Part shown: piece by piece, positions 9,372 to 27,369 of the stretch
Position numbering within the stretch: the first letter of the stretch is position 1
Layout: each line of letters starts with the position of its first letter
Assembly: GCA_963768675.1 (NCBI GenBank)
Contig: CAVYIV010000015.1
Location: 156,345-220,344 of the forward strand
Source: an uncultured Chloroflexia bacterium
GTDB lineage: Bacteria > Chloroflexota > Limnocylindria > Limnocylindrales > CSP1-4
Direction of reading: 5' to 3'
Length of the DNA: 64,000 bases
Translations under genes and position numbers: made by a program
The notes under the pieces: model-generated
What the model saw: the letters and a program-made list of their open reading frames with translations, nothing else
Told to the model about the DNA's origin: nothing
Database searches by the model: none

Positions 9372-9405
9372 CCTTGTGCATCCTCCAGGCTGACGGGGTC
9401 GAGCC

Positions 9406-10112: not shown

Positions 10113-10367
10113 GCCCTCGCGCCTGGCCGACGTGGAGGATCCGGCCGGTGAACTCGCCTGGCACTCGCCTGCCTCCCATCGGTTGACCTGGGCACGCGCC
10201 CCGGAACCGGCGCCCGGGAGCCCCGGCTGCCGGGAGCCCGAACCCGCGTCCGCGACGCCTCTCTCGCGCATCTTCTTCCACGGCGAGGGCCGACACAACG
10301 GGAACCGGGAGAGCAGGTGGCGGAAGAGCGGGCCGGCCGCGGCGGAAGAGCGGGCGGCGGCGGCGCG

Positions 10368-10967
10368 CTACGCCCGGCGGACGAGCGCCTCGCGCTGGAT
10401 GGCGAGGAGCGACAGGGCATCAGTGATCCGCCCGTCCATGGTCATCGCCAGGGCGTCGTCGAAGGACACCCATTGCGTCGCCAGCTCCTCTGTCCCCTCG
10501 GGCGAAGGCGCGCCGGCGGCGAGGTCGGTCGCCACGAAGAAGACCGCGAGCTCATCCGTCACGGAGTTCGAGAGCGCGGCCCGGCCGAGCTCCCGCCACG
10601 TCGCCGCCTGGTACCCGGTCTCCTCGGCGAGCTCGCGCCTGGCCGCATCGAGAGCCGACTCGCCCGGGCCACCGCCGCCCTCCGGGATCTCCCACGAGTA
10701 CGCGTCGAGCGGGTAGCGATGCTGCCCGACGAGGACGACCCGATCGCCCTCGTCGATGGCGAGGATCCCGATCGCGCGATGGGCGAAGTGCACCACGCCG
10801 TAGATGCCGGGCGCGCCGTCGGGCCGGATGACGTCGTCGTGCCAGACGGTCAGCCACGGGTTCTCGTACACGACCCGGCGGGCCGTGCGCCGCCAGGGGC
10901 TCTCCGCCCGCGCCGGCCGGGCGACGGCAGGAGCTTCCGCCGGAGCTGATCCTCTGCGCCTGGCCAT
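10368..10967 (-). CDS. NUDIX hydrolase (ADP-ribose pyrophosphatase-like)
   Basis: Carries the Nudix box GGGGPGESALDAARRELAEETG. Confidence 0.8.
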   Translation of the reverse strand: MARRRGSAPAEAPAVARPARAESPWRRTARRVVYENPWLTVWHDDVIRPDGAPGIYGVVHFAHRAIGILAIDEGDRVVLVGQHRYPLDAYSWEIPEGGGGPGESALDAARRELAEETGYQAATWRELGRAALSNSVTDELAVFFVATDLAAGAPSPEGTEELATQWVSFDDALAMTMDGRITDALSLLAIQREALVRRA

Positions 10968-11171
10968 CGGTGATCTCCCTCCGCCTGCGCTTGCGACCGG
11001 AACGTCTGGGCCGGCCTCACAGACGGCCCAGGATGAACCTGGTGAGCGTCTTCGTATGGTCCATGCTGCCGGAGCTCACCTCGAGGATCCGGACCCGGAT
11101 CACCCGGGCTCCCAATCCGTGCCGCCGTCGGCCGCGAACCACGGTCGACTGCATCCCGCACCCGGCGCTCA

Positions 11172-11574
11172 TCGTGAAACTCAACGGCGACCCTCTCGCC
11201 CTGCTGCGCAGGCCGAGCACCGGCTACCTTGCTACCTCGATGGCCGATGGTTTGCCCCAGGTGACCCAGAGCCTGGGTCGATACGGACGGCGAGCATGTC
11301 ATCATCAATACGGTCCAGTCCCACCTCAAGGTCAGGAACATCGAGCGCGACCCTCGCGTGGCTGTCGCGATCTCGAGCCCGGAGGTCGCTGCCCGCTACT
11401 ATCAGGTTCGCGGTCGGATGGTGAGCACGACGACCGACGGCGGCGGCGAACACATCGAGATGCTCTCCATGAAGTAAACCGGCAGGCCCTATCCCTGGTA
11501 TGGGGGCGGGACCAGGTGCGGGTGATCCTGACGATAGAGCCGGAACACGTGAGCGGCATCAGGTAGAGCGCGGC
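11172..11574 (+). pseudogene. PPOX-class F420-dependent enzyme (pyridoxamine 5'-phosphate oxidase fold), three lesions
   Basis: Pieces in three frames: ...LLRRPSTGYLATSMADGLPQVT | (+1 shift) WVDTDGEHVIINTVQSHLKVRNIERDPRVAVAI...YYQVRGRMVSTTTDGGGEHIEMLSMK-TAA(in-frame stop at ~11476)-TGRPYPWYGG | (shift in a G-run) RDQVRVILTIEPEHVSGIR. Confidence 0.5.
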
Positions 11575-11736
11575 GGTTCGGGCCGAGGAACCGTGGCCGC
11601 GTTGGCCAGCGCTCGTCGACGCGTACAGCCGGGACGTTCAGGCCGGCGGCTGGATCACCGGGAGCGCGCTAGGCTGTGGCAGCGGAGTGGCCGGACCGAG
11701 CCCACCCGCCGCGCCGGGCCCGCGAAGAGGAGATCC

Positions 11737-12543
11737 ATGACCACGGAGACGATCCACGAGGAGGTCCGCGCCCGGTATGCGGCCGCGGCGCTCCAGGCAA
11801 GCGCCGGCGGCTGCTGCTCGGGCGAGCCCAAGCCGATCGGCCTGGCGCTCTACTCCGCGCTCGAGCGGGCGGAACTGCCCGAGGCGGCGGTCCTCGCTTC
11901 GCTCGGCTGCGGCAACCCGATCGCCGTGGCGGAGCTGCGCGAGGGCGAGCGCGTGCTTGACCTCGGCTCGGGTGGGGGGATCGACGTGCTCCTGTCCGCC
12001 AAGCGGGTGGGACCCACCGGGCGCGCCATCGGCCTCGACATGACCGACGAGATGCTGGCCCTGGCCCAGCGCAATGTCGCCGCGGCCGGGGCAACGAACG
12101 TGGAGTTCGTGCGCGGCCACATCGAGGAGATCCCGCTCCCCGCCGAGTCCGTCGACGTGGTCATCAGCAACTGCGTCATCAACCTCGCCGCCGACAAGCC
12201 CGCGGTGTTCCGGGAGATCGCGCGCGTGCTGCGGCCCGGCGGACGGATGGGCGTGACCGACATCGTCGCCGAGGACCGGCTCACCGCCGAGGAGCGTGCC
12301 GCGCGCGGCTCCTACGCCGGCTGCATCGCGGGTGCGCTCTCCTTCTCGGAGTTCCGGGCGGGGCTCGAGGCGGTCGGTCTCAGCGACATCTCCGTCACGC
12401 CGATGCATGCCGTCGCCGACGGGATGGTTAGCGCCATCGTGAAGGCGACCAAGCCAGCCGACGCGAAGCCGATGATCGACCTCAAGCTGCCCGAGCTGCC
12501 GGTCGTCAGCAGCGGCTGCTGCGGGGGAGAGGGCTGCTGCTGA
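11737..12543 (+). CDS. arsM: arsenite S-adenosylmethionine methyltransferase
   Basis: Carries the SAM-MTase motif [12 protein letters not shown], an N-terminal CCSGEP Cys pair and a C-terminal [11 protein letters not shown], which is typical of ArsM/AS3MT. A GAGGAG RBS precedes the start. Confidence 0.85.
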
Positions 12544-12974
12544 TGCGGATCGAGCGGGCGGAGCCGTTTGACGTCCCGGCCGTCGAGGCGCTCCTGACGA
12601 TGGCCGGGCTCCCGCTGGCGGGCGCAGCGGAGGCGCTCGAGACGGGCGTGGTCGCTCGCGACGGCGAGGCTGTCGTCGGTGCCGCATCTGTCGAGCGATA
12701 CGGCTCGGCCGGGCTCCTGCGGTCGGTCATCGTCGCGCCGGATCGACGGGGCGCAGGCCTCGGCCGCGACCTCGTGGCGGCTGCCGAAGAACTCGCCCGG
12801 GGCGAGGGCATCCGCGAGATCTACCTGCTCACCGAGACCGCGATTGGCTGGTTCCCGCGCCTGGGCTACGCGGCCGTGCCGCGCGGCGAGGCAGCGGCGG
12901 TCGTTGGCCGCTCGATCGAGTTCACCACGGCCTGCGCAGAGACAGCCGTCGCGATGCGCCGAGCGCTCGCCTGA
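12543..12974 (+). CDS. arsN2: GNAT N-acetyltransferase, arsenic-resistance ArsN2-like
   Basis: 143-aa GNAT protein (RRGAGLGRDLV...) whose start overlaps the arsM stop (ATGA). The ArsN2 family is commonly found in ars operons. Confidence 0.65.
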   Translation: MRIERAEPFDVPAVEALLTMAGLPLAGAAEALETGVVARDGEAVVGAASVERYGSAGLLRSVIVAPDRRGAGLGRDLVAAAEELARGEGIREIYLLTETAIGWFPRLGYAAVPRGEAAAVVGRSIEFTTACAETAVAMRRALA

Positions 12975-13002
12975 CGGGTCCGGCCGGCACGGGGTATCGG
13001 CA

Positions 13003-13454
13003 TCAGCGCGAAGCGAGCTCCCGCCGCGCGCGACGGGCAAGCTCGACGAACGGTCGAATGCGCATTGTGAGCTGCACCTGGGTCGCCCGGAAGGCCGCGA
13101 GCTTCTCTTCGTCGGACCCTCCAACTCGGCCGGGTCGTCGAGGCCCCAGTGGAGCGCGTTGTGCTCGCCCGGGAACACGGGGCAGGCCTGGCGGGCCCGG
13201 TCGCAGACGGTGATGACGTAGTCCCACGGCTGGTCTAGGAACTCCGCGACGGACTTCCCCCGCGCCAGGGACCAGTCGATCCCGACTCGGCGAGGACTCG
13301 CACGGTGTACGGGTTGACACCTTTCGGATCGGTGCCTGCGGAGTGGACCTCGAACTCCGGCCCGCCGATATGCCCGCAGGAGCGCCTCGGCGATCTGGCT
13401 GCGGGCAGAGTTGCCGGTGCACACGAAGAGGACGCGGATCGGTCTGCTCGGCAT
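13003..13454 (-). pseudogene. arsC: arsenate reductase, LMW-PTP/thioredoxin-coupled type, with three single-nt frameshifts
   Basis: CTGNSARSQIAEALL is the P-loop. GGPEFEVHSAGTDPKGVNPYTVRVLAESG lies in the ORF 13235..13582 frame. IDWSLARGKSVAEFLDQPWDYVITVCD...HWGLDDP lies in the ORF 12312..13832 frame. The C-terminal GSDEEKLAAFRATQVQLTMRIRPFVELAR lies in the ORF 13003..13422 frame. Indels fall in short G/C runs. Confidence 0.6.
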
Positions 13455-13832
13455 CGAGGTGGCCTCCATGGGGCGATGGGCTCGGCCGGCGGCGCGAACG
13501 GTCTGATCGAGATCACCCAGTTCAGCGTCGAGCCGCTCGAGTTCGACGCGATGGCGTTCGATGGCTGCCCGCTGCTCGGCAATCAGCGGCGCGAGGTCGG
13601 CGTCGATGTCGCCCCGTTCGAGACACAGCCGGGCAAGCCGTCCGGCATCCAGCGGCCTGAGTCCGAGCCGTCGGAGCGCGACCACGAGCCGCAGCCGGGC
13701 GAGGTCATCCGGGCCATAGGACCGATACCCATTCGGCTGCCGGGTTGCCGATGGGAGGACGCCGGTCTCCTCGTAGAAGCGGACAGCCGAGGCCGTCACG
13801 CTCGCCTGCTTCGCCAGCTCCGCCACGTTCAT
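13455..13832 (-). CDS. MerR-family HTH transcriptional regulator; reads in-frame into the downstream arsC
   Basis: The N-terminus MNVAELAKQASVTASAVRFYEETGVLP...GYRSYGPDDLARLRLVVALRRLGL is a MerR DNA-binding domain followed by a coiled coil. No stop codon occurs before the arsC start at 13454. Confidence 0.6.
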
Positions 13833-13838
13833 GCTTTG

Positions 13839-13869
13839 AGACTACACCTTCAAGTCAGTTTAAGGTCAA
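13839..13869 (-). promoter_or_regulatory. MerR-type promoter: -35 TTGACC, 19-nt spacer with dyad ACCTT-N9-AAGGT, -10 TAGTCT; the transcript is essentially leaderless
   Basis: Read on the minus strand the sequence is TTGACCttaaactgacttgaaggtgTAGTCTcaaagcATG. The overlong 19-bp spacer and the inverted repeat between the hexamers are the hallmark of MerR-family-regulated promoters. The ATG lies about 7 nt after the -10. Confidence 0.45.
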
Positions 13870-14012
13870 GCCAGCGCCTTGGCGTGGATCCTGCCGGGGA
13901 CAGGACTCGGGCCCGGGGGCATACTCCGCCGATCCGGGGGGCCGCGGACCGCCATGGCCAGGCCGAACCACCGGAAATGCGCATCTGGCGCGAGAGGGGG
14001 GTGGCCGTGAAC

Positions 14013-14674
14013 ATGGAACTTGTCGACCAGGTGTTGCACACCGCGGCGGCCGTGCTTGCGAGCGGGGCGATCTCAGGGAACGGGCACGGCAACGTCAGCC
14101 TGCGCGTTCCGGGCGCGGAGGAGATGTACTTCACCTCCGCCTCGTCCCTGAACGGGCTGGGGCCGGACGGCATCGCCCGCGTCGCGCTCGACGGGACGCT
14201 GCTGGAGGGCACCCTGCCTCCATCCAGGGCGCGGTCGTGGCGATGCACACGGCGATGTACCAGGATCGGCCCGACGTCGGCTGCGTGATCCACACGCACT
14301 CGCCGTTCGCGACCGCGTTCGCCGTGGCCAACCGCCCGATCGACTGCTGGATCGAGGCCCTCGCGATGTTCGGGCTGGCCGACGGCGTGCCGGTCGCGGC
14401 CTACGGGCCGCGCGGATCCGAGCAGGCCGTGGGCAACATCCGCGCGGCGGTGCGACCGGGAGTTCCGGCCGTCCTGCTCGCCAACCACGGCGTGCTCGTG
14501 TTCCACCGCACCCCGGACCTGGCCGTCCTCGTCGGCGGGGTGGTCGAGGAGGCCGCCCAGGCGGCGATCAACGCGCTCGCGCTGGGCGGTCCGGTCGAGA
14601 TCGCCGCCGACCTCCGCGCCGCGGCGCTGCAGCGGGCGATGACGTTCGAGACTGCCGGCACGAAGACCGCCTGA
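14013..14674 (+). pseudogene. class II aldolase/adducin-domain protein (FucA / MtnB-like) with one frameshift at ~14225
   Basis: The N-terminal piece NGHGNVSLRVPG...MYFTSASS...LDGTLLEGTLPPS lies in frame 0. The remainder IQGAVVAMHTAMYQDRPDVGCVIHTHSPFATAFA...ANHGVLVFHRT lies in the ORF 13745..14674 frame. Confidence 0.6.
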
Positions 14675-14728
14675 CACGGGCCCGTCGAGGGCGCGGAGGG
14701 CACACCGGGCGTGCCCCGGGGTGCCCGC

Positions 14729-15865
14729 TCAGGCGAGGGCGACTCCTGGTTCCGCCGATGCCTCGACGCGCCCGACGCACCAGGAGGCCACACCGGCGGC
14801 GGAGAACGCCTGCTCGACGGAGGCAACGCGGTCGGGCGCGATCGCGGCCAGCAGCCCGCCGCTCGTCTGCGGGTCGTGGGCCAGCGCGACGCGTGCCCCA
14901 TCGACGCCGGGCGCGACCACCAGGGCGGGCCCACGAACCGGCGGTTGTGGCCGGCACCGTCCGTCTCCAGGCCGGCGGCCGCCAGCGTGAGCGCGCCCGG
15001 CAGCGCCGGCAGTGCCGCCGCCTCGAAGACGAGCCGCGTCCCCGACGCGCGTGCCATCTCCAGCCCGTGCCCAAGGAGCCCGAAGCCGGTGACGTCCGTG
15101 GCGCCGCGAGTCCTGTGGGCGACGAGCACGTCGGCCGCAGCACGGTTCAGCGTGCGCATCGAGGCGATGGCAGCAGCTAGGTCGTCGGGTGCGGTCCGGC
15201 CCTGACGGGCACCCGAGACGAGCATCCCCGTTCCCAACGCCTTGGTGAGCAGAAGCACGTCGCCGGGCCGCGCGCCACCCTTGCGCGAGAAGTCGGTCCG
15301 GGTGCACGAGCCCGATGACGGCCAGCCCGAACTTCGGCTCGGGATCCCGGATCGTGTGGCCGCCGGCGAGCATCCCGCCGGCCTCGCGCACGACCCCCGC
15401 GGCGCCCTCGACGATGGCGGCCATCGCCGCCGGGTCCAGTGCCTCGGGGAACGCCGCCACCGAGAGCGCGAAGAGCACGCGCCCGCCCATCGCGAAGACG
15501 TCCGAGCAGGCGTTGGCGGCGGCGATCGCCCCGTAGGTCCGGGCGTCGTCCACGAGCGGAGGGAAGAAGTCGACCGTCCCGATGACGGCGAGCTCGTCGG
15601 TGAGCCGGTACACGGCCGCGTCATCGGGCGGATCCAGGCCGGCGATCAGGTCGACCGGCGCCGCGCCCGAGATCGCGCCGAGCCCGGCGAGCACGCCGGC
15701 CAGCACGTCGGCGCCGAGCTTCGCGGCGCAGCCCCCGCAATCGGTCAGGTCGGTCAGGCGCAGGCGCGGAGGGGCGAACCCGGAAGCCGCTGCGAGGGGC
15801 GCCCCGCACTCGATGCACAGCGGGCGGGTCGCATCGTTGTCGGCGCCGCAGCTTGCACAGATCAC
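14729..15865 (-). pseudogene. selD: selenide, water dikinase (selenophosphate synthetase) with two frameshifts
   Basis: The N-terminus has a Zn-ribbon and LTDLTDCGGCAAKLG (the GCGCK-type loop). The middle GDVLLLTKALGTGMLVSGA...ATDVTGFGLLGHGLEMARASG lies in the ORF 14401..15624 frame. The C-terminal TSGGLLAAIAPDRVASV is back in the ORF 14729..15865 frame. Confidence 0.7.
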
Positions 15866-16687
15866 CGGAGACTCCCCATCGCAGGCCAGGTGCCGAACAG
15901 TAGATCACGGAGTGCGGGACGTCGGCAGCTGCGGCGTCGCTGACGGCGGTGCCGCCCGCGACTGCGCCGCCGGTGATGGCTCAGGGGAGGGTGATCGCGC
16001 GGTCGACCCTGGAGTGCGAGGCGAGGATCGCGGCGAGCTCGGCCGCGAGGCCCGCCATGCGCCGGTTTCGGGCTCGTCGCCACCATCACGACCCGTGCCC
16101 CTGCCGGGATACCCTTGAGCCCGCCATCCGGGTGGAGCAGCACGCCCGCCGCGCCTCGGATCGTCAGGAGGTCGTCGGGATGCGCGTCCGATGAGACCCG
16201 CCAGGCGTTCGGGCCGGTGGGCAGACCGCGGAGATCGGCCCGCCGATGGCGGCCATGGAGGCGACCACGACGACCGTCGTGGAGGCGCTCGGGATGACCG
16301 GCTCGTGGTCGGCCGGAGCCTTGATCGCCATCCGGTGGGCACCGTCGGCTTCGACGATCACGTATGCAGCGCTCGTCTCGGCGAAGAGGCGGTCGATCGC
16401 CTCCGGCGGCGGGCCGCCGAGCTTGCCCTGCCCACGATCCACGGCGACGAACAGCGGGAGTCCGGGCACAAGGCCGCCTCGACGACGGCCGGCTCGGCGG
16501 ACCAGCAGATCGGTTTGCCCGGCTGGTCGGCTCCCACCCTGGTGGTCGTCGTGAGGATGACCCGGGCGCCGGCCGCAGCGAGGTCGCGGCCGAGGGTGAA
16601 CAGGATGGTCGACTTGCCACCGGCGCCGACGATCGACACCAGCTCGCGTTCGCCGAGCCCGAGCCGTTCCGCCAGGGAGAGGGTCAT
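15862..16687 (-). pseudogene. yqeC: selenium-dependent molybdenum hydroxylase system accessory protein YqeC, with two frameshifts
   Basis: ELVSIVGAGGKSTILFTLGRDLAAAGARVILTTTTRV lies in the ORF 16358..16687 frame. VPLFVAVDRGQGKLGGPPPEAIDRLFAETSAAYVIVEADGAHRMAIKAPADHEPVIP lies in the ORF 16164..16469 frame. The C-terminal GVLLHPDGGLKGIPAGARVVMV lies in the ORF 15862..16620 frame. Its stop overlaps the selD start (ATGA). Confidence 0.65.
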
Positions 16688-17491
16688 CGGCTCCCGTCGT
16701 TCAGCCAGGCCAGGATCGCCTCGAGCACGCCGCCGCCGACGGCGAGCGCCTTGTCCGAGACGTGGGCGATGGCGTCACGCTCCGATCGGGGATCGACGTC
16801 GCCGATCTTGAGCCCCACGGTCACGCGACCGGGAGCGATCATCCCGCGGACAATCCCGCCGATCGTGGCCCGGACCGGGGAATCGCCGATCGCCCCCAGT
16901 GGCTGGCCGGCCGTGACGATCTCGCCGAAGCCAACGCTCCAGGTGAGGTCTCCGTCCGCGTGCGCACGGAGGACGCGCTCGGCCGAGGCGCCGCCGAGCT
17001 CGCCCGGAACGCCCGTGTTGGGGAACGCGGGCCCGTTCCAGATCACGCTCCCGAGGCGGTACCCGCGCATCGTCTCGACTACCGCGTGAGCAGTCCACCC
17101 CTGCGACGAAGCCGGGGCCGAGCCCGACGACGAACGGCGCCTGATCGAGGCGGGTGTCGAGCGCCTCCTTGGCGACCCGTGCGTCGACGAGCACGGACAA
17201 CGGCACCGGGAACTCCGGCACGTCCGCGGAGACCAGCACCGGCACGGCGCCGCGGCGTGCCGTCGCCACCGCCTCCTCCGGCGTTCCGACGAGGACGCCC
17301 TCGATCCCGTCGATCTCGACCCGGCCGTCCGAGACCGCCGAGGAGAACGCGACGGTCCGGCGGACCGTCAGTGGCCGCGCGAGGTCGAGGACGACAACGG
17401 GAAACCCCGCCCGTCGGAGGCGCCAGGCGACGCCGGACCCGATGTCCCCGCCGCCGCGGACGACGACGAGATGCCCGGAGAAGAGGCTCAC
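16684..17491 (-). pseudogene. yqeB: selenium-dependent molybdenum hydroxylase system protein YqeB, with one +1 insertion at ~17090
   Basis: HLVVVRGGGDIGSGVAWRLRRAGFPVVVLDLARPLTVRRTVAF...GLGPGFVAGVDC lies in the ORF 16775..17491 frame. Then (an extra T shifts the frame) HAVVETMRGYRLGSVIWNGPAFPNTGVPGE...GLKIGDVDPR...SDKALAVGGGVLEAIL lies in the ORF 16684..17070 frame. Confidence 0.7.
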
Positions 17492-18279
17492 GAGGGGGCG
17501 CGGCGGTTCGAGGCGATGACCTCGGACATGATCGACACCGCGAGCTCCTCGACGGTCTCCGCGCCGATCTGGAGCCCGATGGGATTATGGATGCGCTCCA
17601 GCGTCCCCGACGTGACATCGGACGCGGCGAGGGCCTGCCTGGTCGCCTCCCAGCGGCGCCTGCTTCCCATCACCCCGATGTAGCGGGCCGGGGTCTCGAG
17701 CAGGAGCGGCACGATCTCGGCGTCGATGTCGTAGCTCCGCGTGACCGCGACCACCGAGGTGTCCTCCGTGATCGGGAATGCCGCCAGGGCCGCGGCGACG
17801 CTGCCGCCGAAACGGACGTCGGCGAGCGGCATCGCCTCGGCCGTGACCAGCTCGGTCCGCTCGTCGACCGCGACCGTGCGGTAGCCCAGCCAGTGGGCGA
17901 GGTCCACGACGGCCTTGCCGACGTGGCCCGCTCCGATGACGTACACCGTGTGCGGACTCATGTAGGGCTCAAGGTAGACGGTCATGGTGCCGCCGCACAC
18001 GCCCGGATCGCCGCGCTCGGGGTCCTGCAGCTGGTAGCTCCGGAGCGCCGTTTCGTTGCTCTGCATCGCCTCGAGCGCGTCGAGCCGGATCGCGTCCTCG
18101 ACCTTGCCTCCGCCGATCGTCCCGACGGTGGACCCATCGGCGTGGACGACCATCTTCGTCCCCGCATGGCGAGGCACGGAACCCTGCGTGGCAACGATGG
18201 TGGCGAGCACGACGCGCTGCCCGCCGCTGAGCGCCTCCGAGAGCTCCGCGAGGATGCGCTCGGGCCGGGTGACGCTCAC
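17488..18279 (-). CDS. xdhC: XdhC/CoxI-family molybdenum cofactor insertion chaperone
   Basis: Has the XdhC N-terminal domain (VVLATIVATQGSVPRHAGTKMVVHADGSTVGTIGGG) and a Rossmann-like C-terminal domain (TVYVIGAGHVGKAV). The GTG start overlaps the upstream TGA (GTGA). Confidence 0.75.
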   Translation of the reverse strand: MSVTRPERILAELSEALSGGQRVVLATIVATQGSVPRHAGTKMVVHADGSTVGTIGGGKVEDAIRLDALEAMQSNETALRSYQLQDPERGDPGVCGGTMTVYLEPYMSPHTVYVIGAGHVGKAVVDLAHWLGYRTVAVDERTELVTAEAMPLADVRFGGSVAAALAAFPITEDTSVVAVTRSYDIDAEIVPLLLETPARYIGVMGSRRRWEATRQALAASDVTSGTLERIHNPIGLQIGAETVEELAVSIMSEVIASNRRAPS

Positions 18280-21171
18280 GACGCCTGAAGCGCCCGCCAG
18301 ACCCGTTCCGGCGTGAACGGGATGTTGTTGATCCGGGCCCCGGTTGCGTACGCGATGGCGTTCCGGATGGCGGGCGCCGCGCCGTCCAGCGGGATCTCCG
18401 CGATCGCCTTGGCACCGAACGGCCCGCTGGTCTCCATGGTCTGCACCAGGATGGCTTCCAGCCGCGGCATCTCGTCGGCCCGGTAGATCTTGTACGGCCC
18501 GAACGCGGCGTTGACCATCCGCCCGTCGACGTCGTACGCCATCTCCTCGCAATGGGCGTAGCCGAGGGCCTGGACCATGCCGCCTTCGACCTGACCGGAC
18601 GCGGTGACCGGGTTGATCGGCACGCCGCAATCGACAGCCATGACGAGCTGTTGGACCGTGACCTGGCCGGTTTCGATGTCCACCTCGACCTCGGCGAACT
18701 GCGCCGCGTATGGTGGCGGCGATGCCGGCGACACGTACGAGGCGGTCGCCATGATCTGGTGCTGGCCCTGCTGGTGGAGGGACGACAGGGCGATCTCCCC
18801 AAGGGTCACCGACCGGCCGTCCGCCGACCAGGCGGCCCGGTCGTGGAGCTCGACCGAGGCGTTATCGACGCCGAGCAGGAGCGCGGCGCGGTCGATGATC
18901 TGGCCGCGGACCTGCTCCGCTGCGCGCTTGACGGCGGTTCCCGAGATGTAGGTCGTGCTCGAGGCGTAGGCCCCGGTGTCGAAGGGCGTGAGGTCGGTGT
19001 CGGACGAGTAGACGACGATGTCCTCGGTGCCCACGCCGACCACCTCTGCCGCGATCTGCGCGAGCACGGTGTCCGAGCCCGTCCCGAGGTCCGTCGCGCC
19101 AACGAGGAGGTTGAACGAGCCGTCGTCGTTGATCTTGAGGCTGGCGCCACCCATGTCGAGGCCGGGAATCGCGGTGCCGTGCATCGCCATCGCAAATCCG
19201 AGCCCGCGCCGGACGTGGGGCCGGTCAGCCGGCTGCCTCCAGGCAGGGTCGTCACGCCGCTGCCAGCCGATCGCCCGCTTGCCTTGGAGCACGGCCTCCT
19301 CGAGGCCGCTCGACATGATGATCGGCACGCTGCCCGCGCCCGGGTCGCCCTCGCCGAGCTGGGGCGCGATGTCGATCGGGTCGCCGACCTTCGTCCAGTT
19401 GCGTCGACGGAACTCGATCGGGTCCATCCCGATGGCTGCCGCGATGTCCTCCATGTGGGCCTCGAGCGCGAACAGCGCCTGCGGGGCGCCGTAGCCGCGG
19501 TAGGCGCCCGGCACGGGGATGTTCGTGTACGCGACTTGCAGTCGAAGCGCTTGAGCGGGCTGTTGTACGAGCTGAGGCCGCGCATGCCCGACACCATCTG
19601 GACGGTCAGCCCGTGGGTCCCGTAGGCGCCGGTGTTCGCGACGATCCGCATCTCCTGCGCCGTGAGCTTCGCGTCCGCGTCGACGCCGGTCCGGAAGGTG
19701 ATCGTCTGGGGATGCCGGGTCCGGGAGCGAGATGAACTCCTCCTCCCGTGTCAGCTCGAGCCGGACGGGACGGCCGGTCGCGATCGTGAGGTGGGCGACG
19801 ATGTCCTCGATGAGCATTTCCTGCTTCGCCCCGAAGCCGCCGCCGATCCGCGGCTTGATGACCCGGATCTGGCGCACCGGGAAGCCCGAGGAGCGGCGCA
19901 ATCATGCGCCGGACGTGGAACGGGACCTGCGTCGATGACGTAATCTCCAGTCGGTCGTCGCTGTCCCAGCGCGCGATCGCGATGTGCGTCTCGATCGGCG
20001 TCTGCTGCACCTGGTGCACGCGGAAGGTCTGCTCGAAGACGCGCTCGGCCGCGGCGAACCCCTTCTCCACGTCGCCGGTCTCGGCCTGGATGTGGTGGAC
20101 GATGTTGTGGCCCGCGTCGTGGGCGCCGTCGAGGTCGGGCTCGTCGTGGATCACCGGGGCGCCGTCGAGGATCGCCTCGTTCTCGTCGAAGACCGCGGGG
20201 AGTACCTCGTAGGTCACCTTGATCAGGTCGAGCGCCGCGAGCGCGATCTCCTCGGTGTCGGCCGCGACGGCCGCGACCCGGTCGCCGACGTAGCGCACCT
20301 TGTCGTCGAAGCTCACCTGGTCGTAGGGCCTAGGGTTCGGGTAGCTCTGGCCGCCCGACGCGTAGCGCACCCTCCGCACGTTCCCATGGTGGAGCACGGC
20401 GTGGACACCGGGGAGCACCCTTGCTGCGGTGTCGTCGATCGACACGATGCGGGCATGGGCGTACGGGCTGTAGAGGACTTTGGCGATCAGCGTCCCCGTG
20501 AGGTCCCGGTCGTCCGTGAACGCGGGGTTTCCCTTGGCCAGCTTCACCGCGTCGGTCTTCGTCTCGGCATGGCCCACGACGCGCGTGGCGGGCACGTCCT
20601 CGCTGAGGACGACCCGTGGCGAGATCGGTCCGAGCCCGTCTCGATCGTGGTGCGGCGCGTCCGATCCCGTGAGCCGGTCGAGATGCGCCACCTCGACGTT
20701 GTCGGGGGCCTCCCCGCGTATGATCGCGGCCGCCCGCAGGACCGCGTGCACCGGGCGCAGGTAGCCGGTTTCCCGGTCGAGGATCCCCGAGAGCGCAGAC
20801 CTGACGTCGGCTTCCGTCGGCGTGGGGTTCTTCTCGATCAGCGCCTTCGCCGCGAGGATCATCGCGGGAGTCGAGTAGCCGGACTGGATCGCGCCGGTGT
20901 CGATGAAGGCCTGTTGGATCGGGTGCATCCCCCCGGGGACGGCGAGACCTTCGACCGTCTCGATCTCGTGCCCCTCGGCCTGGGCAGCCAACATCACGTC
21001 CCCGGACACCAGCCGGCCGTCGACGAGCACCGCCGCCGCGCCGGTCTCGCCCGTGCCGGAGCCATACCGCACGCTGTGGAAGCCGGCGCGCCTCAGCACC
21101 GCCCGCAGCGACTCGTGCGGCTCGCAGGTCAGCGTTCGGCGTGCCCCGTTGATGTTGAGCGTGATCGTCAC
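18276..21171 (-). pseudogene. xanthine dehydrogenase-family molybdopterin enzyme: fused cysteine-less [2Fe-2S]-like domain plus Mo-binding large subunit, with one frameshift at ~19880
   Basis: The GTG at 21171 overlaps the stop of the FAD-subunit gene, and a GGAGGGGG RBS precedes it. The first ~155 aa have the 2Fe-2S-subunit fold (ITLNINGARRTLTCEPHESLRAVLRR...ETVEGL...NPTPTEADVRSALSGIL), but every Cys ligand is substituted: RYGSGTGETGAAAV, AIQSGYSTP and ILDRETGY. Then come Mo-subunit blocks (LYSPYAHARIVSID, RIGGGFGAKQ). The frame switches from ORF 19606..21909 to ORF 18276..19901. Confidence 0.65.
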
Positions 21172-21909
21172 GCCTGATCGCCCCCTCCGATTGTGGTCAG
21201 CGCGCGTGCCGTGAGCACCGCCGCGAGATGGGCCCGGTAGACAGACGAGCCGCGGAAGTCCGCGGGCGGATCCAGCTCCGCGATTTGCTCCGGATCCACG
21301 AGCACCGGGTGGGCGGCGACCCCCGACATGGCAGTCCGCGTCGTGCCGGCGGCGTCGCGGTGAGCCACGACCATCACGATGGGACGGTCCATCGGCGTGC
21401 GAGCGGTTCCGTGCGCCGCGGCCTGACCGCCCACGGGGACCGTGACGCTCGTGATCACGGCTCCCGCGAGCACGTGTGGGTCGCCCAGGACCGCCTCGAG
21501 CGGGATGTCGGCGATCGAGCCGGGCCGCGCGATGCTGACCCGGGCGCCGAAGGCGAGAAGCCCGGTGAGCAGCGGGCTCTCCGGGTCGGCCGCCCCGACG
21601 GTGCCGCCCACGGTCGCCGCCTCGCGGATGGTGCCCGGCGCCTCGAGACGCGCCAGATCGCGAAGCGTCCCGGGGACCAGGCCCGAGTCGACGACCTCCT
21701 GGAGTCGGGTCATCGCCCCCAGGCGGACCCATCCGCTGCCCGGTCTCGATGCCGCCGAGGTGCAGCGCCTGCAGGTCGACCGCCGCGGCGGACGTCCGGC
21801 CGGGACGTGCGTTGAGGGTCGTTCCGCCGGCAAGGACGACAGCGTCGGGGAGCGCAAGTAGCGTGAGCGCCTCTTCGAGCGTGAGCGGCCGGTAGTACTT
21901 CATGTTCAC
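21168..21909 (-). pseudogene. xanthine dehydrogenase-family FAD-binding subunit (CoxM/XdhB-like) with one frameshift at ~21740
   Basis: The N-terminal piece MKYYRPLTLEEALTLLALPDAVVLAGGTTL lies in the ORF 19606..21909 frame. The remainder GWVRLGAMTRLQEVVDS...GTIREAATVGGTVGAAD...FRGSSVYRAHLAAVL lies in the ORF 21168..21857 frame. Confidence 0.6.
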
Positions 21910-21919
21910 GTCCGACTCT

Positions 21920-22912
21920 TCACTCTTCCAGCCTGTCGTTCACGCCCTCCCGGGCGGCCGCGCAGGCAAGCTCAGGCGCAGGGGATGATGCGGGACGGCA
22001 CTCGCCCAATGGTACAGGCCTGCTCAACGGGCGACGCCTCGCAGCCGCCCTACGAGGGCCGCGCGCACCCGCTTCGGGATGCGCGCGACGAAACGAGCGC
22101 CGGAGCAGGCCGACGTGTGGCTCGGCGGGACGCGCCTTCGCGGGCAGGGCAAGGTAGGTCCGGTCTCGCGGGTGCGGCGGCAACCGGTTCGAGGGCTCCC
22201 GGTTGGCGCCCCGCTCGACGAAGGCGAGGTTGTGGTAGAAGCTCACCGACCTCACGGACAGGTCGAGGGTGCTCGGCACATAGCCCGGAACGTCGAGCTC
22301 GGCGTAATTGAGCCCGTCGGTGAGCGCCTGCAGGAAGGTCATCGACGTTCCTGACCGATCGGCCCCGCTGGAGCCTCCATACGTTCGCTCCCAGTACGAC
22401 GTCTGAAGGTCTTCGATAGCGTAGATCCCGCCCTCGGTGAGGTGACCGAACAGGTGCCTGAAGCTCGCGATCACGTGCGCGCAGACGTGGCTGCCGTCGT
22501 CGACGATGACGTCGAACGGGCCATACCGGCTCGCGACCTCGTCAAGGAACCGCGGGTCGCTCTGGTCCCCCTGGAGAACGACGATCCGGTCCTCGGCGAT
22601 CCCCGTCTTCGGTTGGATGTCGATGCCGACGATGCGCGCCAGGGGGAAGAACTCCTTCCACATCCGGAGTGACTCCCCGCCCCTCTCGGGATCGGCGTAG
22701 CCGCCGATGCCGATCTCGAGGAGCGTGATCGCCCGTTCGCGCAGGTGGCCGAGATGCCGCTCGTAGGCATCCGCGTACGAGTGGGCGCCCTCCTTGTCGG
22801 TGCGCATCTCCCGCGCGATCTCGCGGAGTGACCGTTCGCTCACGACGAGGTGCCTCCTGGGTGTGGAGCGGGCCGGACCGGCTACGCCGGGGGCCGGCGG
22901 AGACGCCACCAA
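21920..22912 (-). CDS. class I SAM-dependent methyltransferase (Methyltransf_24 / TylF-MycF-like O-methyltransferase); the C-terminal ~90 aa are low-complexity, possibly a lost stop
   Basis: LLEIGIGGYADPERGGESLRMWKEFFPLARIVGIDI is a SAM-binding motif I, and DVIVDDGSH is present. The family is normally ~230-260 aa, whereas the ORF is 330 aa. Confidence 0.45.
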   Translation of the reverse strand: MVASPPAPGVAGPARSTPRRHLVVSERSLREIAREMRTDKEGAHSYADAYERHLGHLRERAITLLEIGIGGYADPERGGESLRMWKEFFPLARIVGIDIQPKTGIAEDRIVVLQGDQSDPRFLDEVASRYGPFDVIVDDGSHVCAHVIASFRHLFGHLTEGGIYAIEDLQTSYWERTYGGSSGADRSGTSMTFLQALTDGLNYAELDVPGYVPSTLDLSVRSVSFYHNLAFVERGANREPSNRLPPHPRDRTYLALPAKARPAEPHVGLLRRSFRRAHPEAGARGPRRAAARRRPLSRPVPLGECRPASSPAPELACAAAREGVNDRLEE

Positions 22913-23039
22913 ACGCGCCGCGAGGATAGCAGCCGGTTCCGGAGGCCTCGTCGTACCGGGTCAGGGCCGCTCAACGGGCGACGAGCCGGGTTCGGGGCCC
23001 GCGGGCGATGCTAGGATCGGCAGCGTGGCAGCGCGCTGG

Positions 23040-24078
23040 ATGGTCCTCCGGGAAGGCTCGCGCCTCCGGTGGGGCGGGGACCTGCGGCGGCATTACGTCC
23101 TTGCGGCGCTGGCCTCGCGAAGGGACGCCGCCGATGTCGACGGCTGGTCGGCCGGCCGACTCCGCGACGCGCTCCGGGCGGACCGCCGCCGACCCTGGGA
23201 CGCCAGGCCTCGGCTCGCCGCGGCCACGATGCTGGGCACCGAGGTCCTCGGCCGCGGCCGCCGGGCGAACAATCCCCTTCGCCGTCGACTTCCACGATGA
23301 CCCGGTCGCGCAGAACGCGGCCTTGAGCGTCGAGGTCGATCGGGCGTGGCTGGAGCGGGCGGTCGAGCGCAAGCGGCGCAACCTCGATGCGTTCCGCTGG
23401 CTGGTGGTCCCGTCCCCCGAGCTCGCCGCGCTCGCCGGGCTCGAAGCCGACCGGACGATCGTGGCGGGCAACGGCAGCGACACGACGCTCATCCGGCCGC
23501 TGCCCTGGCCGCGCGAACCGGCGATCGGCTTCATCTCCGGCGCGGCCGCGGGACGCGGCATCGAAACCCTGATCGAGGCGGCCCGCCTGGTCCGCATCGC
23601 GGTGCCGGAGCTTCGCCTGCTCCTCTGGCTGGCAGCGACCGGCCCGGCCGGCGAGACCTACCTGGACGATCTGCGGCGATCGACCACGCCCGACCCGTGG
23701 ATCGAGTACGCCGCGGCCCCATACCCGGAGATCGGGGCGCAGCTGGGCCGGGCAACGGTCCTGTGCGTGCCGAACCCGTCCGTCGCCTACTGGGACGCGG
23801 TCTCGCCCGTCAAGCTCTTCGACTGCATGGCCGCGGGACGCCCGGTGGTCGTCACCCCCAGGACGGTCATGCGTGCCGACGTCGAGCGACATCGCGCCGG
23901 CCTCGTGGCGCCCGGCGACCGCGCGGAGGACCTGGCGGGTTCGATCGCCCGCTTGCTGGCCGACGAGCCGCTGGCCCGTCAGCTCGGGGAGAACGGGAGG
24001 GCCGCGGTCGTCGCCGAGCACGACTGGCGCTCCATCTCGGAGTCCCTGGCTGCCGAGCTCGTCCGCCGGGACGCCTGA
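23040..24078 (+). pseudogene. GT-B glycosyltransferase (GT1/GT4-like) with one frameshift at ~23290
   Basis: The C-terminal domain (ORF 23008..24078 frame) is PVKLFDCMAAGRPVVVTP...GENGRAAVVAEHDW. The N-terminus MVLREGSRLRWGGDLRRHYVLAALA lies in the ORF 22794..23300 frame. Confidence 0.45.
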
Positions 24079-24200
24079 GACGGACGCCATGGCCTCGTGG
24101 GCCCGCCGGTCTCGACGACCGCGGACGAATGCAGGACGACGCGTGGCGTGAGGATCGACCCGTTCGGCGGAGCCCGCAATCGGTACGGCCGCGCCGACGG

Positions 24201-26326
24201 ATGGCGACGGCCGGAAGAGGCGTTCTCCTGCTGGCCGCCGCCGCGCTCGTGGTCGGGGTGGCATCGCGCCAGGCCGATCCGATCGAGGGCTTCTCGCCCG
24301 GGGGCGCCGTGGCCGGGCTGGCCGCCGAGCTGCCGACGACGCTGCCGGCGGCGATCGTCGTCTCGATCGCCATGCTCCTCAACCTCGCCGCGGGCGCCGT
24401 GGTGCTCCGCCTGGTTCGTCGGGCCCCGTTCGCCACTTGGTCCGATCTTCTGCTGGGCGGATTCGCCGGAGCCGTACTCCTCGACGTGCTGCTCGTGTTC
24501 GCGCTGGGCGGGGTCGGGACGTTTCGCCAGCTCCCGCTGGTCGTGATCCTCGCCGTCACGGTGGTCGCGGGATCGCGTGCGCGCCCCTTCGTCGCGCAGC
24601 CGTTCCGGGGTGGGCGCACGTGCTCCCGGCCCGCTGGCTGCTGGTCGGCCTCGTCTGGTCGGTGCCGCTGCTCCTCGCGCTCTCCTCGCCGGTCGTCCCG
24701 TTCGTGGATGAGCTGCCGAACCATGTCGCGCCGGCTGAGCACCTCCGGGTGTTCGGCCAGATCGCGTCGCTGGCCACGTATCCATCGCCGCTGTACGGCC
24801 CGTCGCGGCTCTTCCTCGGCTATGCCGGGCTGATGGCCATGCTCTCGACGCTCGCCGGCATCCCCGCCGCACTGGCGATGTCGGCGTCGGTTGGATCGCT
24901 CACCTTCCTTTCGGCGGTCGCCGCGCGACGGCTCGCATCCGCACTGTTCGGCCGCGATGCGGGTTTCTGGGCGCTGCTGGCCTTCCCGCTCTCGTTCACG
25001 TTTGTCCGGCTCTCTGACGCGCGGGACAGCGTCGTGGCCCTGCCGCTGGCCGCGCTCGCACTGGCGATCCTGGTGGTCCGTGGAAGGCAGGGAGGAGCGG
25101 CCGGTCCGGCCCGCGCAGGGCCCGACTGGCTGCTTGCGGCCTCTCTCACGGCATCGATCCTCGTCCACCCCCTCGTGGGGGCGCTGACCGTCGGCACGGT
25201 TGCCCTCCTGGTCGTCGCCGACCCCGGCCGCTACGCTGGACGCGCGATCCCGGCACTCTCGGCGGCGGCATCGCGGTGCTTCCCGAGGTGGCGGTGATGG
25301 TGGGGCTCGCGCCGGCACCGCCATGGGGGATTGCGGCCTTCGCGGCCGCAGTGGTCGTCGCGATCTGGGTGAGCCGCGCACTGCATCTCGCACCCTGGAC
25401 GAAGATCCCGCCGTTGCTGGCGACCGCCGGCCTTCTTCTCGCTGGCGCGCTGGCGCTTGCGATCGTCGCTGTCGCCCTGCCGGGGGCGCCGGCGCAGGCA
25501 GCCCGGTGGATCAACCCCGCGTTTCCGTTTCTGTTCGCGACGGCAGGCCTGGCCGCTCTCGGACTGGGGGCGGCGTGTCGTGGTGGTCGCCGGGTCCTGC
25601 TGGCGCCGCTCGCCGCCGGCGGCGTCGCGCTTCTCGCGGTGGCCGTCATCCCGGGCTCGTCGATCCTCGCGCAGGCATTCCACTACGAGGTCCCCAAAGC
25701 CGTTGGGTACTGGCTGCCATGGGCCTGCGTCCCGGCGGCCGCGGGCCTCGTGGCGGCCGTCACCCGCCGGCGCGGTCCGGCGATCGTCCGCGCGGGGCTC
25801 GTCGCGGGCTTCCTGGCGGTCGTGCTCCTGCCGTTCGGGTCACCCGTTCCGGACTCGGTCCAGGCTTCGCACGCCGTGGCCGACGATCTCGCGTACGACC
25901 TGCGGACCGCCGAGCTGGGCGGCTGGCAGGGCTACGGCGACTCCCGGCTCGTCGTGGATGGGGCCGGCCGTTCGCTCCTCGACTTCCTTCGCCAGGAGAT
26001 CGCGACTGGACGATTCACGGCGGACACGCGGGTGCTCCACGTCGCGAGCAGCTACCAGCCGTGGGCCAACGTGCCGATCGCGGTCTTCACCGGTCTCGAG
26101 GAGACGGTGCGTGTCCGCGGACGCCACCGTCGACATCTTCACGGCCGGAGGCCGCATCTACCCCCTGTCGACGCTGGATGCGGATCTCCACGCCGGGTTC
26201 ACGGCCGTAGTCCTGGAGCCGGCCGGCCTGCCCGCCTCGGTCCGGTTGGCCATCCTCGATGCCGGCTATCGGTCGGTCTTCGCGAACAGCTCGGGGGAGG
26301 TCCTGGTCGCCCCGGCGCCCGGGTGA
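24201..26326 (+). pseudogene. large polytopic membrane protein with a C-terminal soluble domain (GT-C-like glycosyltransferase or polysaccharide polymerase?), spread over four ORF fragments
   Basis: Successive TM-rich pieces lie in ORFs 23346..24833 (from MATAGRGVLLLAAAAL), 24437..25297, 25276..26376 and 25457..26326. No diagnostic motif was recognised. It is adjacent to a GT and an MT, which suggests a degraded glycan locus. Confidence 0.3.
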
Positions 26327-26456
26327 CCTCGCTGATCGGTCCGATGCGAGACAATCCGATCGGTCGAGGCCCATGAGTTCCAGCGGTACCTCGACGTGCT
26401 GCGCCGGACGCGCCACCGTCCGCGAACGTGAGCAGGCCAGCGATGGGAGAGCCAGC

Positions 26457-26831
26457 ATGACCGAGGTCGAGATCGCGGACGGTCACCTGCACGTTGTGGT
26501 CGAGGGTTTCGACAAGGTCCTCGCCCTGCGCAGCACGCTGGACATACCCCTCGTCCACGTGCGCGGCGCTTCGCAGGACCCCGACGCCCTCCGAGAACGG
26601 CATGGGCTGCGACTCGCGGGCACCTCGCTCCCCGGCGTCGTCGCGGCGGGCACCTTCTTCGATGGACAGTGGTGGTTCCTGGACGTTCACCACCCTGAGG
26701 ACGCGGTGAAGATCGACCTCGACCACGAGCACTATGTCGCGCTGATCGTCGAGGTCGCCGACCCCGTCGCGACCGTGAGGGCGATCAACGCCGCCGTCGC
26801 GGCCCTGCCATCGAGGACGGCCGCTGACTGA
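26457..26831 (+). CDS. hypothetical protein
   Basis: 124 aa (MTEVEIADGHLHVVVEGFDKVLALRS...) with a GGGAGAG RBS. No family recognised. Confidence 0.4.
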   Translation: MTEVEIADGHLHVVVEGFDKVLALRSTLDIPLVHVRGASQDPDALRERHGLRLAGTSLPGVVAAGTFFDGQWWFLDVHHPEDAVKIDLDHEHYVALIVEVADPVATVRAINAAVAALPSRTAAD

Positions 26832-26853
26832 GCCGACGGGACGTCTCCCGCCG

Positions 26854-27369
26854 ATGGCCTGGCTGGTCGAGCAGGCTGATCCGTCGGATGGCCCGGAGAT
26901 CCACGAGGTCGTTGCCCGAGCCTTCGGGCGGGAGGACGAAGCGGAGCTCGTCGAGCGGCTGCGTGCCTCGGATGTCTGGATTTAAGGGCTCGCGCTCGTG
27001 GCCCGGCCGCCCGGAGAACCTCACGGCCCGATCGTCGGCTTCGCGGCGCTGAGCCGGATCACGGTCGGCGGACGCCCGGCGCTCGCGCTCGCACCCGTCG
27101 CGGTGGCGCCCGAGCGGCAGCAGACGGGGGCGGGCTCGGCGCTCGTGCGAACGGGCATTGCGCGTGCCGCAGACCGTGGCGAGCGCCTGATCCTCGTCCT
27201 CGGTGACCCGCGCTACTACGGCCGGTTCGGGTTCCGGGCCGCCATCCCCATGGGCATCCATGGAGCCTACGACGAGGCGGGCCCAGCCTTCCAAGCGCTC
27301 GCGCTGCGCGGAGCGGGCCTGATCCCGAGTGGGCTCGCCGTCTACCCGGACCTGTTCGCCGGGCTGTGA
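26854..27369 (+). pseudogene. GNAT N-acetyltransferase, YhbS-like, interrupted by an in-frame TAA at 26983..26985
   Basis: MAWLVEQADPSDGPEIHEVVARAFGREDEAELVERLRASDVWI-TAA-GLALVARPPGEPHGPIVGFAALSRITVGG...YYGRFGF. The two parts are collinear with E. coli YhbS (LREDGFLTLGLVA...) and lie in the same frame. The stop sits where a sense codon is expected. Confidence 0.5.

Follow-up and report, generated by a model that had tools for sequence, protein, structure and literature searches.

The one-base frameshifts that interrupt a selenium-dependent molybdenum hydroxylase (SDMH) cassette in the window (the whole 64,000-nucleotide stretch of DNA analysed here) are best read, at a probability of about 0.8, as errors of the consensus or the assembly in low-quality patches of the record, and not as gene decay. 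We favour this reading because unrelated genes and intergenic sites are affected, relatives are intact and constraint is unchanged. The contig probably comes from a MAG of a Limnocylindria-like Chloroflexota organism. The cause would then be technical, for example a long-read consensus that was unpolished or of low depth, or one drawn from mixed strains. Base-call noise in two blocks would add or remove single bases irrespective of gene, function or coding status, and a gene caller would then report fragmented or garbled proteins. The initial annotation had preferred redundancy-driven decay and named a local sequencing problem as the alternative. The evidence reverses this order: unrelated neighbours are affected, selection is not relaxed, the lesions of the cassette are 1 nt only and the indel contexts are not those of slippage.

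The cassette and its frameshifts

Six genes lie on the minus strand from 21909 to 14729, in the order FAD subunit, FeS-Mo fusion, XdhC, YqeB, YqeC and SelD. Their identities and common strand, proposed at the outset, hold up in NCBIfam and Pfam matches of the frame-spliced translations. The FAD-binding subunit gene (21168..21909; 246 aa once corrected) gives PF00941 and TIGR03312-like matches as a spliced protein, and the [2Fe-2S]-molybdopterin fusion subunit gene (the Mo gene; 18276..21171; 962 aa once corrected) carries Fer2_2, Ald_Xan_dh_C, MoCoBD_1 and MoCoBD_2. Next comes the maturation-factor gene xdhC (17488..18279), with both XdhC domains (PF02625 and PF13478); it is intact, as first described, at 263 aa instead of the 264 given. 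It is followed by yqeB (16684..17491; 268 aa once corrected), yqeC (15981..16687, stop codon at 15981-15983; 234 aa once corrected) and selD (14729..15865; 378 aa), whose product has an N-terminal CxxC...CxxC extension.

The last three are the known marker set for the labile-selenium cofactor, an assignment that stands, since each exceeds its curated cutoff. YqeB, corrected by one base, scores 290.1 bits against TIGR03309 (cutoff 220; profile 1-255 of 256, across the splice). YqeC reaches 156.4 bits against TIGR03172 (cutoff 73) and 127 bits against PF19842, and spliced SelD 330.6 bits against TIGR00476 (cutoff 125; profile 1-310 of 311). The hydroxylase subunits are placed more loosely. TIGR03313 and TIGR03312 (Se_sel_red; YgfN/YgfM-type) are the best-matching families for the Mo and FAD subunits, respectively, yet by the NCBI thresholds neither is a member (704 bits against the TIGR03313 equivalog cutoff of 1101.9; 79.6 against 241.5 for TIGR03312). 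The other leading match of the fusion, XdhA (NF043082), is also below its cutoff (674 against 780); the fusion is matched over profile positions 1-753 of 758, across all splices. The overlapping stop and start codons noted initially are found at four junctions, each of 4 nt (GTGA three times, ATGA once; the FAD stop is overlapped by the Mo-gene start as GTGA), but not between yqeC and the downstream selD, which are separated by a 115-nt spacer. Taken as a whole, the cassette would very probably be an ordinary, functional SDMH operon of a Chloroflexota bacterium with high GC content and affinity to Ca. Limnocylindrales.

Within its 7.2 kb we count 11 frameshifts, eight insertions and three deletions, all of 1 nt. 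The initial total was seven, correct for the FAD gene (one), yqeB (one) and selD (two) and too low for the Mo gene (three, not one) and yqeC (four, not two). The FAD gene has an insertion at 21742; the Mo gene has insertions at 19882 and 19728 and a deletion at 19534. The inserted T in yqeB, reported near 17090, lies at 17089. In yqeC there is a deletion at 16469, followed by insertions at 16224, 16187 and 16060. The insertion at 15286 and deletion at 14930 in selD, seen against the relatives L002, L015 and L003, compensate each other and leave about 119 codons garbled. Eleven one-base corrections return six complete ORFs without internal stops or other lesions; the cassette holds neither nonsense codons nor indels of more than one base. 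The intact xdhC shows no indel against any relative (zero events in 792 nt at the local rate, P=0.34).

Two blocks of indels in the window

About 33 one-base indels are present in the window. They cluster in one block at 6.9-27.9 kb and another at 54.1-57.3 kb, with some 1.3-1.4 events per kb. The first, Block A (6863..27940), includes the cassette and holds 29 of the 33 (1.38 per kb). Its events were recognized from profile matches across splices, base-level alignments to relatives and points where a codon model changes frame with no stop codon; a GC3-only HMM and then a codon-usage HMM gave many 'non-coding' calls, which were checked by ORF inspection. Outside the cassette, Block A events fall in the genes for AOR (9610), PPOX (~11255 and ~11505), MerR-ArsC (~13110, ~13275 and ~13370), an aldolase (14222), a methyltransferase (22081), a glycosyltransferase (23249) and 3-hydroxyacyl-CoA dehydrogenase (~27940), in a membrane-protein gene at 24.2-26.3 kb (~24608, ~25256 and ~26108, from coding statistics only), at 24217 and at two intergenic sites (21979 and 22979). 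Two lesions of another kind occur in the same block: the AOR gene has lost about 1.1 kb internally, and PPOX shows what looks like a nonsense change, TAC to TAA (11476-11478). Simple indel noise does not explain these two.

Block B (54119..57327, minus strand) holds four 1-nt indels. Two are insertions in a short-form ssnA (54119 and 54237), seen against more than 10 relatives, and two are shifts in a Se-dependent XDH gene (54967-57646; ~56228 and ~57327), which scores 947 bits against TIGR03311 (cutoff 830; profile 8-845 of 848, across both splices). The suggestion of two better-preserved XDH paralogs is thus half right: the conventional XDH at 46771-50438 is intact and the Se-dependent one is not. 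That genes of the selenium trait lie in both blocks might suggest a pattern linked to function. Against such a pattern, YgfK is untouched and at least eight unrelated genes are affected.

Altogether, the 33 events touch two intergenic sites and 15 or more genes with unrelated functions, which rules out decay specific to the cassette. They all fall within 38% of the window. Outside the blocks, 21.3 kb of coding sequence confirmed by profile matches is free of them, for which the block rate gives P about 3e-13; the cassette has 11 in 7.2 kb, a density much higher than functional genes would show by chance. Uniform sequencing noise over the whole window is thereby ruled out as well. So is GC content as the source of the patchiness, given that the clean 44-52 kb region is as GC-rich (0.74) as the worst-affected stretch.

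This strong patchiness means that the artefact reading needs an extra assumption: depth or polishing that varied along the contig, or a mixture of strains. The last can be stated as a subtype of its own, in which collapsed reads from co-occurring relatives sharing these blocks at 90-95% identity leave spurious single-base gaps where alignments disagree. Metagenomes do hold close relatives of exactly this segment (91-93% identity), the region is syntenically flexible (at this locus selD is missing in L004, L005, L006 and L008, and the membrane-protein gene in L001), and the patchiness would be accounted for. On the other hand, the co-occurrence of strains is assumed, mosaic substitution patterns should also result, and the avoidance of homopolymers (described below) is not obviously explained, so we rate this particular route as very unlikely.

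Relatives, constraint and the kind of lesion

The closest sequence, L081, is an independent metagenome contig that aligns as a single 9-kb block at 93.2% identity with all genes intact. Its non-3n differences from the window amount to only 14 one-base events, all window-specific. Seven further relatives also have intact genes and agree at the cassette sites. The frameshifts reported initially are present in the sequence, each cassette indel being specific to the window in base-level alignments against eight relatives and against L081. In comparisons with the short-read contigs L001 and L005, any 1-nt difference within a cassette gene that is not compensated recurs in the comparisons with all other relatives, and is thus window-specific. 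The MFD-series MAG relatives, which their contig names suggest are long-read assemblies, carry sporadic private 1-nt indels of their own in the cassette. A search for same-species sequence found none, the nearest being L081 (93%) and L001 (91%), both intact; likewise, the exact XdhC of the window is absent from the protein collection, where the best cluster is 92% identical.

These comparisons bear on the main rival, a very recent genuine pseudogenisation, in which the labile-selenium cofactor fell into disuse or XDH became redundant, and frameshift mutations are now eroding the cassette, some of its neighbours and the second Se-XDH/ssnA locus. Several observations speak for it. Of the nine genes in the window that belong to the selenium trait, seven carry shifts, at two separate places; the intact conventional XDH could supply redundancy; and the bona fide AOR deletion, together with the apparent PPOX nonsense change, means that some real decay may occur in Block A. 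Yet YgfK (3.4 kb), which belongs to the same trait, is without any shift, unrelated genes and intergenic sites are affected at equal density, and the 93%-identical L081 is fully intact.

In counts of nonsynonymous (N) and synonymous (S) changes, the window branch does not differ from the intact L081 (44N:114S and 30N:76S; odds ratio 0.98, p=1.0), and the comparison with L001 gives 27N:89S for the window and 29N:79S for the relative (p=0.54); the Mo gene, with three shifts, has 13N:75S. Because N:S on the window branch is the same as in the intact sister, relaxed selection is not supported, and the raised N/S that marks a pseudogene-bearing lineage is not seen; the shifted genes show no nonsynonymous excess. 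Bacterial mutation spectra suggest, as a rough estimate, that tens of neutral substitutions would accompany eleven neutral indels. One gene does show a raised ratio on the window branch, the unshifted xdhC (10:3, against 3:18 for L001), which counts towards pseudogenisation. Hidden compensated shifts are ruled out as the source of its amino-acid excess, the changes being scattered single replacements.

The kind of lesion points the same way. Every one of the roughly 33 events is exactly 1 nt, whereas natural indels in the intergenic spacers between the same relatives span 2-18 nt. Insertions outnumber deletions among the typed events (14 to 7, n=21). An identical base is adjacent in only 4 of the 21 (2/14 insertions and 2/7 deletions; random expectation 0.44, P=0.016), and none of them lies in a run of four or more identical bases, though the window has 526 such runs. 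Homopolymer avoidance of this sort is the opposite of replication slippage. Single-base, insertion-biased, homopolymer-avoiding events contradict bacterial mutation spectra, and the cassette lacks the mixed spectrum of a pseudogene (nonsense codons, multi-base indels, deletion bias, slippage contexts). On balance, pseudogenisation is unlikely.

The consensus-error reading is itself not a textbook case. As expected of errors, the single-base indels occur without respect to what a gene does or whether the DNA is coding, and the sequence is otherwise conserved. The preference for homopolymers that marks Nanopore, 454 or HiFi consensus errors is, however, absent. Non-homopolymer, insertion-biased contexts differ from that classic signature and count against an artefact. 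A search of the 21 contexts for a shared motif, as in methylation-type systematic error, turned up nothing convincing.

Two further readings take the indels at face value. In one, they are real and record a very recent loss of the labile-selenium cofactor trait and neighbouring accessory genes in a Limnocylindria-like population, by an unusual process that makes clustered non-slippage 1-nt indels at ~1.4 per kb in two patches while sparing substitutions and the rest of the genome; we regard this as highly improbable. If the shifts were real, they would indicate a mutational process undescribed in bacteria. In the other, programmed ribosomal frameshifting or transcriptional slippage restores the frames in vivo, and its sole point is that every gene can be restored by +1 or -1 shifts. 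The ~33 sites share no common motif, are not slippery and lie mostly outside homopolymers; +1 and -1 shifts both occur within single genes, and intergenic sites are hit too. All relatives encode these proteins in one frame, by which recoding is effectively refuted.

Significance and known systems

On this assessment, the record is chiefly a data-quality warning. Its annotation will show SelD, YqeB, YqeC and XDH-family proteins as fragments or with scrambled sequence, plus at least nine other damaged genes, and any selenium-trait loss or pseudogene load inferred from it would be spurious.

Decay of the Mycobacterium leprae type combines mixed lesions (nonsense, multi-base indels, large deletions) with deletion bias, slippage contexts and raised dN/dS. 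The window resembles it in that several adjacent genes, a whole pathway, are interrupted, and differs in that all of these hallmarks are absent from the cassette.

The closer likeness is to indel errors of long-read or low-depth assemblies, which are documented sources of frameshift artefacts in (meta)genomes (Sereika et al. 2022, PMC9262707; proovframe, bioRxiv 10.1101/2021.08.23.457338; Kastor, PMC12007338). As there, events are single-base only in genes otherwise perfectly conserved, indifferent to function and also intergenic; reference proteins restore full-length ORFs, and long-read MAG relatives show similar private events. Unlike classic assembly errors, which concentrate in homopolymers and are spread along a contig, those of the window avoid homopolymers and are confined to two blocks.

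The cassette itself is to be compared with the SDMH accessory set of Haft & Self 2008 (PMC2276186), namely YqeB/TIGR03309, YqeC/TIGR03172 and SelD, with XdhC, SsnA/TIGR03314, YgfK and XDH-family enzymes. Examples include the E. coli xdhA-ygfO region, E. faecalis EF_2563-2582 and the C. difficile loci (PMC11448449). The window differs from these in its host, a high-GC Limnocylindria-like Chloroflexota and not a gut/anaerobic Firmicute or Proteobacterium; in showing no YgfJ/TIGR03310 or TIGR03527 gene in the cassette; in Mo and FAD subunits that fall under the TIGR03313/TIGR03312 cutoffs; in a short, 340-aa SsnA; in the CxxC...CxxC extension of SelD; and in the frameshifts of this record. In its gene content it follows the set closely. 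After frame correction the same marker proteins exceed their curated cutoffs, selD lies near yqeB and yqeC as in 'orphan SelD' genomes, and XdhC adjoins a hydroxylase with three cofactors (FAD, 2Fe-2S, Mo), all within an extended molybdenum-hydroxylase locus. A real but modest finding accompanies the warning: a near-complete Haft & Self set (selD, yqeB, yqeC, xdhC, hydroxylase, ygfK, ssnA and Se-dependent XDH) is under purifying selection in soil/freshwater Limnocylindria-like Chloroflexota and many Acidimicrobiia MAGs, which widens the known spread of the trait. The window matches that set at its second locus too, where YgfK, SsnA and the TIGR03311 Se-dependent XDH are found.

One-base indels within the cassette

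Cassette DNA was aligned to eight relatives (83–91% identity) and to L081 (Ga0182011_10006619), a metagenome contig that is closer still, at 93.2% identity to the window across a single 9-kb block. These alignments reveal eleven one-base indels private to the window: an insertion in the FAD gene (21742), two insertions and a deletion in the Mo gene (19882, 19728 and 19534, respectively), an inserted T in yqeB (17089), a deletion and three insertions in yqeC (16469; 16224, 16187 and 16060), and an insertion and a deletion in selD (15286 and 14930). The initial annotation had correctly described the cassette genes as interrupted, with xdhC intact (no indel in these alignments), but had counted only seven frameshifts. 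Once the eight insertions are taken out and each of the three deletions is padded, all six ORFs are complete again (246, 962, 263, 268, 234 and 378 aa, FAD to selD), with no internal stops and no further lesions.

The best explanation, to which we assign a probability of roughly 80%, is a working operon in the organism, with the shifts being consensus/assembly errors confined to two low-quality patches of the contig. The ‘pseudogenised state’ of the cassette is best not treated as a real feature.

Patchy distribution of one-base events in the window

The one-base events are not cassette-specific. A window-trained codon-usage HMM was used to flag same-strand frame switches without a stop codon, which were confirmed via profile matches spanning the splice (i.e. 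translation joined across the frameshift) or base-level alignment to relatives. An aldehyde:ferredoxin oxidoreductase (AOR) remnant (9412–10191, minus strand) has a 1-nt deletion at 9610, and a PPOX/PNPOx-family gene (~11150–11565, plus strand) is shifted at ~11255 and ~11505, its spliced protein matching PF01243 over positions 9–117 of 120. Three shifts interrupt a fusion of a MerR-family regulator to a thioredoxin-type arsenate reductase (MerR-ArsC; ~13000–13832, minus strand). Single events lie in a class II aldolase (14222), in a methyltransferase and a glycosyltransferase upstream of the cassette (22081 and 23249), in intergenic DNA (21979 and 22979) and at 24217. A membrane-protein gene has three shifts, called from coding statistics only, and a 3-hydroxyacyl-CoA dehydrogenase is shifted at ~27940 (NF006143, profile 3–290 of 291 spanning the splice). 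Adjoining MerR-ArsC is an intact SAM-dependent methyltransferase gene (11647–12540, plus strand), which reads as ArsM-like from its Cys-rich ends.

A second selenium-trait locus occupies 50488–57646 (minus strand). Its 3.4-kb YgfK gene (50488–53877; TIGR03315, 854 bits) is intact. The short-form SsnA (340 aa; 53939–54966) carries insertions at 54119 and 54237 relative to more than 10 relatives, and its short N-terminus is shared by relatives L031, L040 and L078. The Se-dependent XDH (54967–57646; TIGR03311, 947 bits spliced, cutoff 830) is shifted at ~56228 and ~57327, so one of the two XDH paralogs earlier described as apparently better preserved is itself shifted. The sole fully preserved one in the window is the intact conventional pair (46771–50438, plus strand), with an xdhB-like Mo subunit (profile 6–756 of 758) and an xdhA-like FeS/FAD small subunit (3–464 of 468).

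Altogether, ~33 one-base events are confined to two blocks: 29 at 6.86–27.94 kb (1.38 per kb) and four at 54.12–57.33 kb (1.25 per kb). Elsewhere in the window, none falls in 21.3 kb of coding sequence that was verified, against 29 expected at the block rate (P ~3e-13). Genes for fumC, pgm, a GDSL-type hydrolase, KaiC, the AMMECR1/radical-SAM/Memo trio, conventional XDH, YgfK, GlnA, GSIII, ResB and a PLP enzyme are full length in one frame. Given the block rate, the intact xdhC is unremarkable (zero events, P=0.34). Candidate causes of the patchiness are uneven depth, uneven polishing and a collapsed strain mixture. Synteny in the region is flexible: L004, L005, L006 and L008 lack selD at the locus and have the aldolase gene directly after yqeC, and L001 lacks the membrane-protein gene.

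Elsewhere in the window, a tRNA-Pro(CGG) (43612–43688) adjoins the intact AMMECR1/AmmeMemoRadiSam radical-SAM/Memo trio (43784–46675). Two segments of lower GC (39524–41287 and 42019–43784) contain neither a convincing high-GC3 ORF nor an Rfam match at the gathering threshold. Small intact minus-strand gene pairs at 29824–30492 and 33621–34309 look, by eye from their translations, like toxin–antitoxin-type modules (one pairs a PIN/VapC-like protein and an antitoxin, the other a MazF-like protein and a ribbon-helix-helix antitoxin).

Consensus error or genuine decay

That the selenium trait has genuinely and recently decayed, the reading favoured by the initial annotation, is supported only by the enrichment of shifts in selenium-trait genes and by the lesions in AOR and PPOX, and it is improbable: the 3.4-kb ygfK is intact, and all quantitative tests (independent assemblies, selection, lesion spectrum and context) point the other way. 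Every cassette gene is intact at all sites in L081, L001 and the other relatives, which are independent assemblies. The only indels between the window and L081 are fourteen 1-nt events and differences of 3 and 15 nt in the yqeC–selD spacer.

For selection, window-versus-sister differences in FAD, Mo, xdhC, yqeB and yqeC were polarised by outgroups. The window branch, with 44 nonsynonymous and 114 synonymous changes (44N:114S), matches that of intact L081 (30N:76S; odds ratio 0.98, p=1.0), and taking L001 as the sister gives 27N:89S versus 29N:79S (p=0.54). Even the Mo gene, with three shifts, shows 13N:75S on the window branch. When an added neutral component is solved for, it amounts to approximately zero extra substitutions, and at most a few tens (a hand estimate from the odds-ratio uncertainty). 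As a separate observation, xdhC, the sole unshifted cassette gene, has a window-branch replacement excess (10N:3S versus 3N:18S for L001; 9N:8S versus 4N:11S with L081 as sister), its replacements being scattered, mostly conservative and at sites invariant in the remaining relatives.

The one-base events are all exactly 1 nt, and natural spacer indels among the same sequences span 2 to 18 nt. Typed events comprise 14 insertions and 7 deletions, and the cassette contains no nonsense codons. Just two of the 14 insertions and two of the 7 deletions involve an identical neighbouring base (random expectation 44%, P=0.016), and no typed event falls inside a run of at least 4, despite 526 such runs in the window. 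Spontaneous 1-nt indels in bacteria mostly arise from slippage in runs; this spectrum is therefore not that of natural mutation. To our knowledge, such homopolymer avoidance fits no platform’s classic error profile either. Programmed recoding can, in practice, be excluded.

As a control, MFD-series long-read MAG relatives have sporadic private 1-nt indels in their cassette homologues (window-equivalent positions 21685 in L002, 21351 and 17025 in L015, and 20594 in L008), and artefacts of this sort seem to be frequent among the clade’s public MAGs. Against short-read L001 and L005, all non-compensated 1-nt differences in cassette genes are also seen against all other relatives, i.e. they are window-specific. 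Gene-fragmenting indels are documented in long-read (meta)genome assemblies (PMC9262707; bioRxiv 10.1101/2021.08.23.457338; PMC12007338).

Two lesions in the 6.86–27.94 kb block are of another kind. The AOR remnant retains only residues ~69–94 and 471–709 of the ~640-aa homologue in L006, a ~1.1-kb internal deletion; base-call noise cannot yield this, leaving a real pseudogene or a misassembly as the two options. In the PPOX gene, an in-frame TAA (11476–11478) stands where a Tyr codon TAC fits, an apparent TAC-to-TAA change and the sole apparent nonsense substitution detected.

Cassette identity and known SDMH systems

In this 71% GC window, the six co-directional minus-strand genes (21909 to 14729) are clearly identified by NCBIfam and Pfam profiles from their frame-spliced translations: an FAD-binding subunit (PF00941; top NCBIfam match TIGR03312), a [2Fe-2S]-molybdopterin fusion subunit (Fer2_2, Ald_Xan_dh_C, MoCoBD_1 and MoCoBD_2; spliced, TIGR03313 704 bits and XdhA 674 bits, XdhA profile 1–753 of 758), XdhC (17488–18279; PF02625 and PF13478), YqeB (TIGR03309, 290 bits, cutoff 220, profile 1–255 of 256), YqeC (TIGR03172, 156 bits, cutoff 73) and SelD (TIGR00476, 331 bits, cutoff 125, profile 1–310 of 311). 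Four junctions have 4-nt overlaps (GTGA at FAD/Mo, Mo/xdhC and xdhC/yqeB; ATGA at yqeB/yqeC), and 115 nt separate yqeC from selD. SelD has an N-terminal CxxC...CxxC extension of ~30 aa (15760–15865), zinc-ribbon-like and kept in L081 (8624–8700). The organism does not belong to the actinobacteria. Among relatives of the cassette, Chloroflexota MAGs with the label Ca. Limnocylindrales are the closest, and many Acidimicrobiia MAGs come next; XdhC has no identical entry in the protein collection (nearest cluster 92% identical).

The YqeB/YqeC/SelD marker set for selenium-dependent molybdenum hydroxylases (SDMH) was defined by Haft & Self (PMC2276186). As in their accessory system, YqeB, YqeC and SelD here score above cutoffs, with XdhC and the hydroxylase adjacent. 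Unlike the TIGR03313 and TIGR03312 equivalogs, the Mo and FAD subunits score below cutoffs and are therefore not filed in these families. By the defining markers, the cassette belongs to the SDMH accessory system as an ordinary member.
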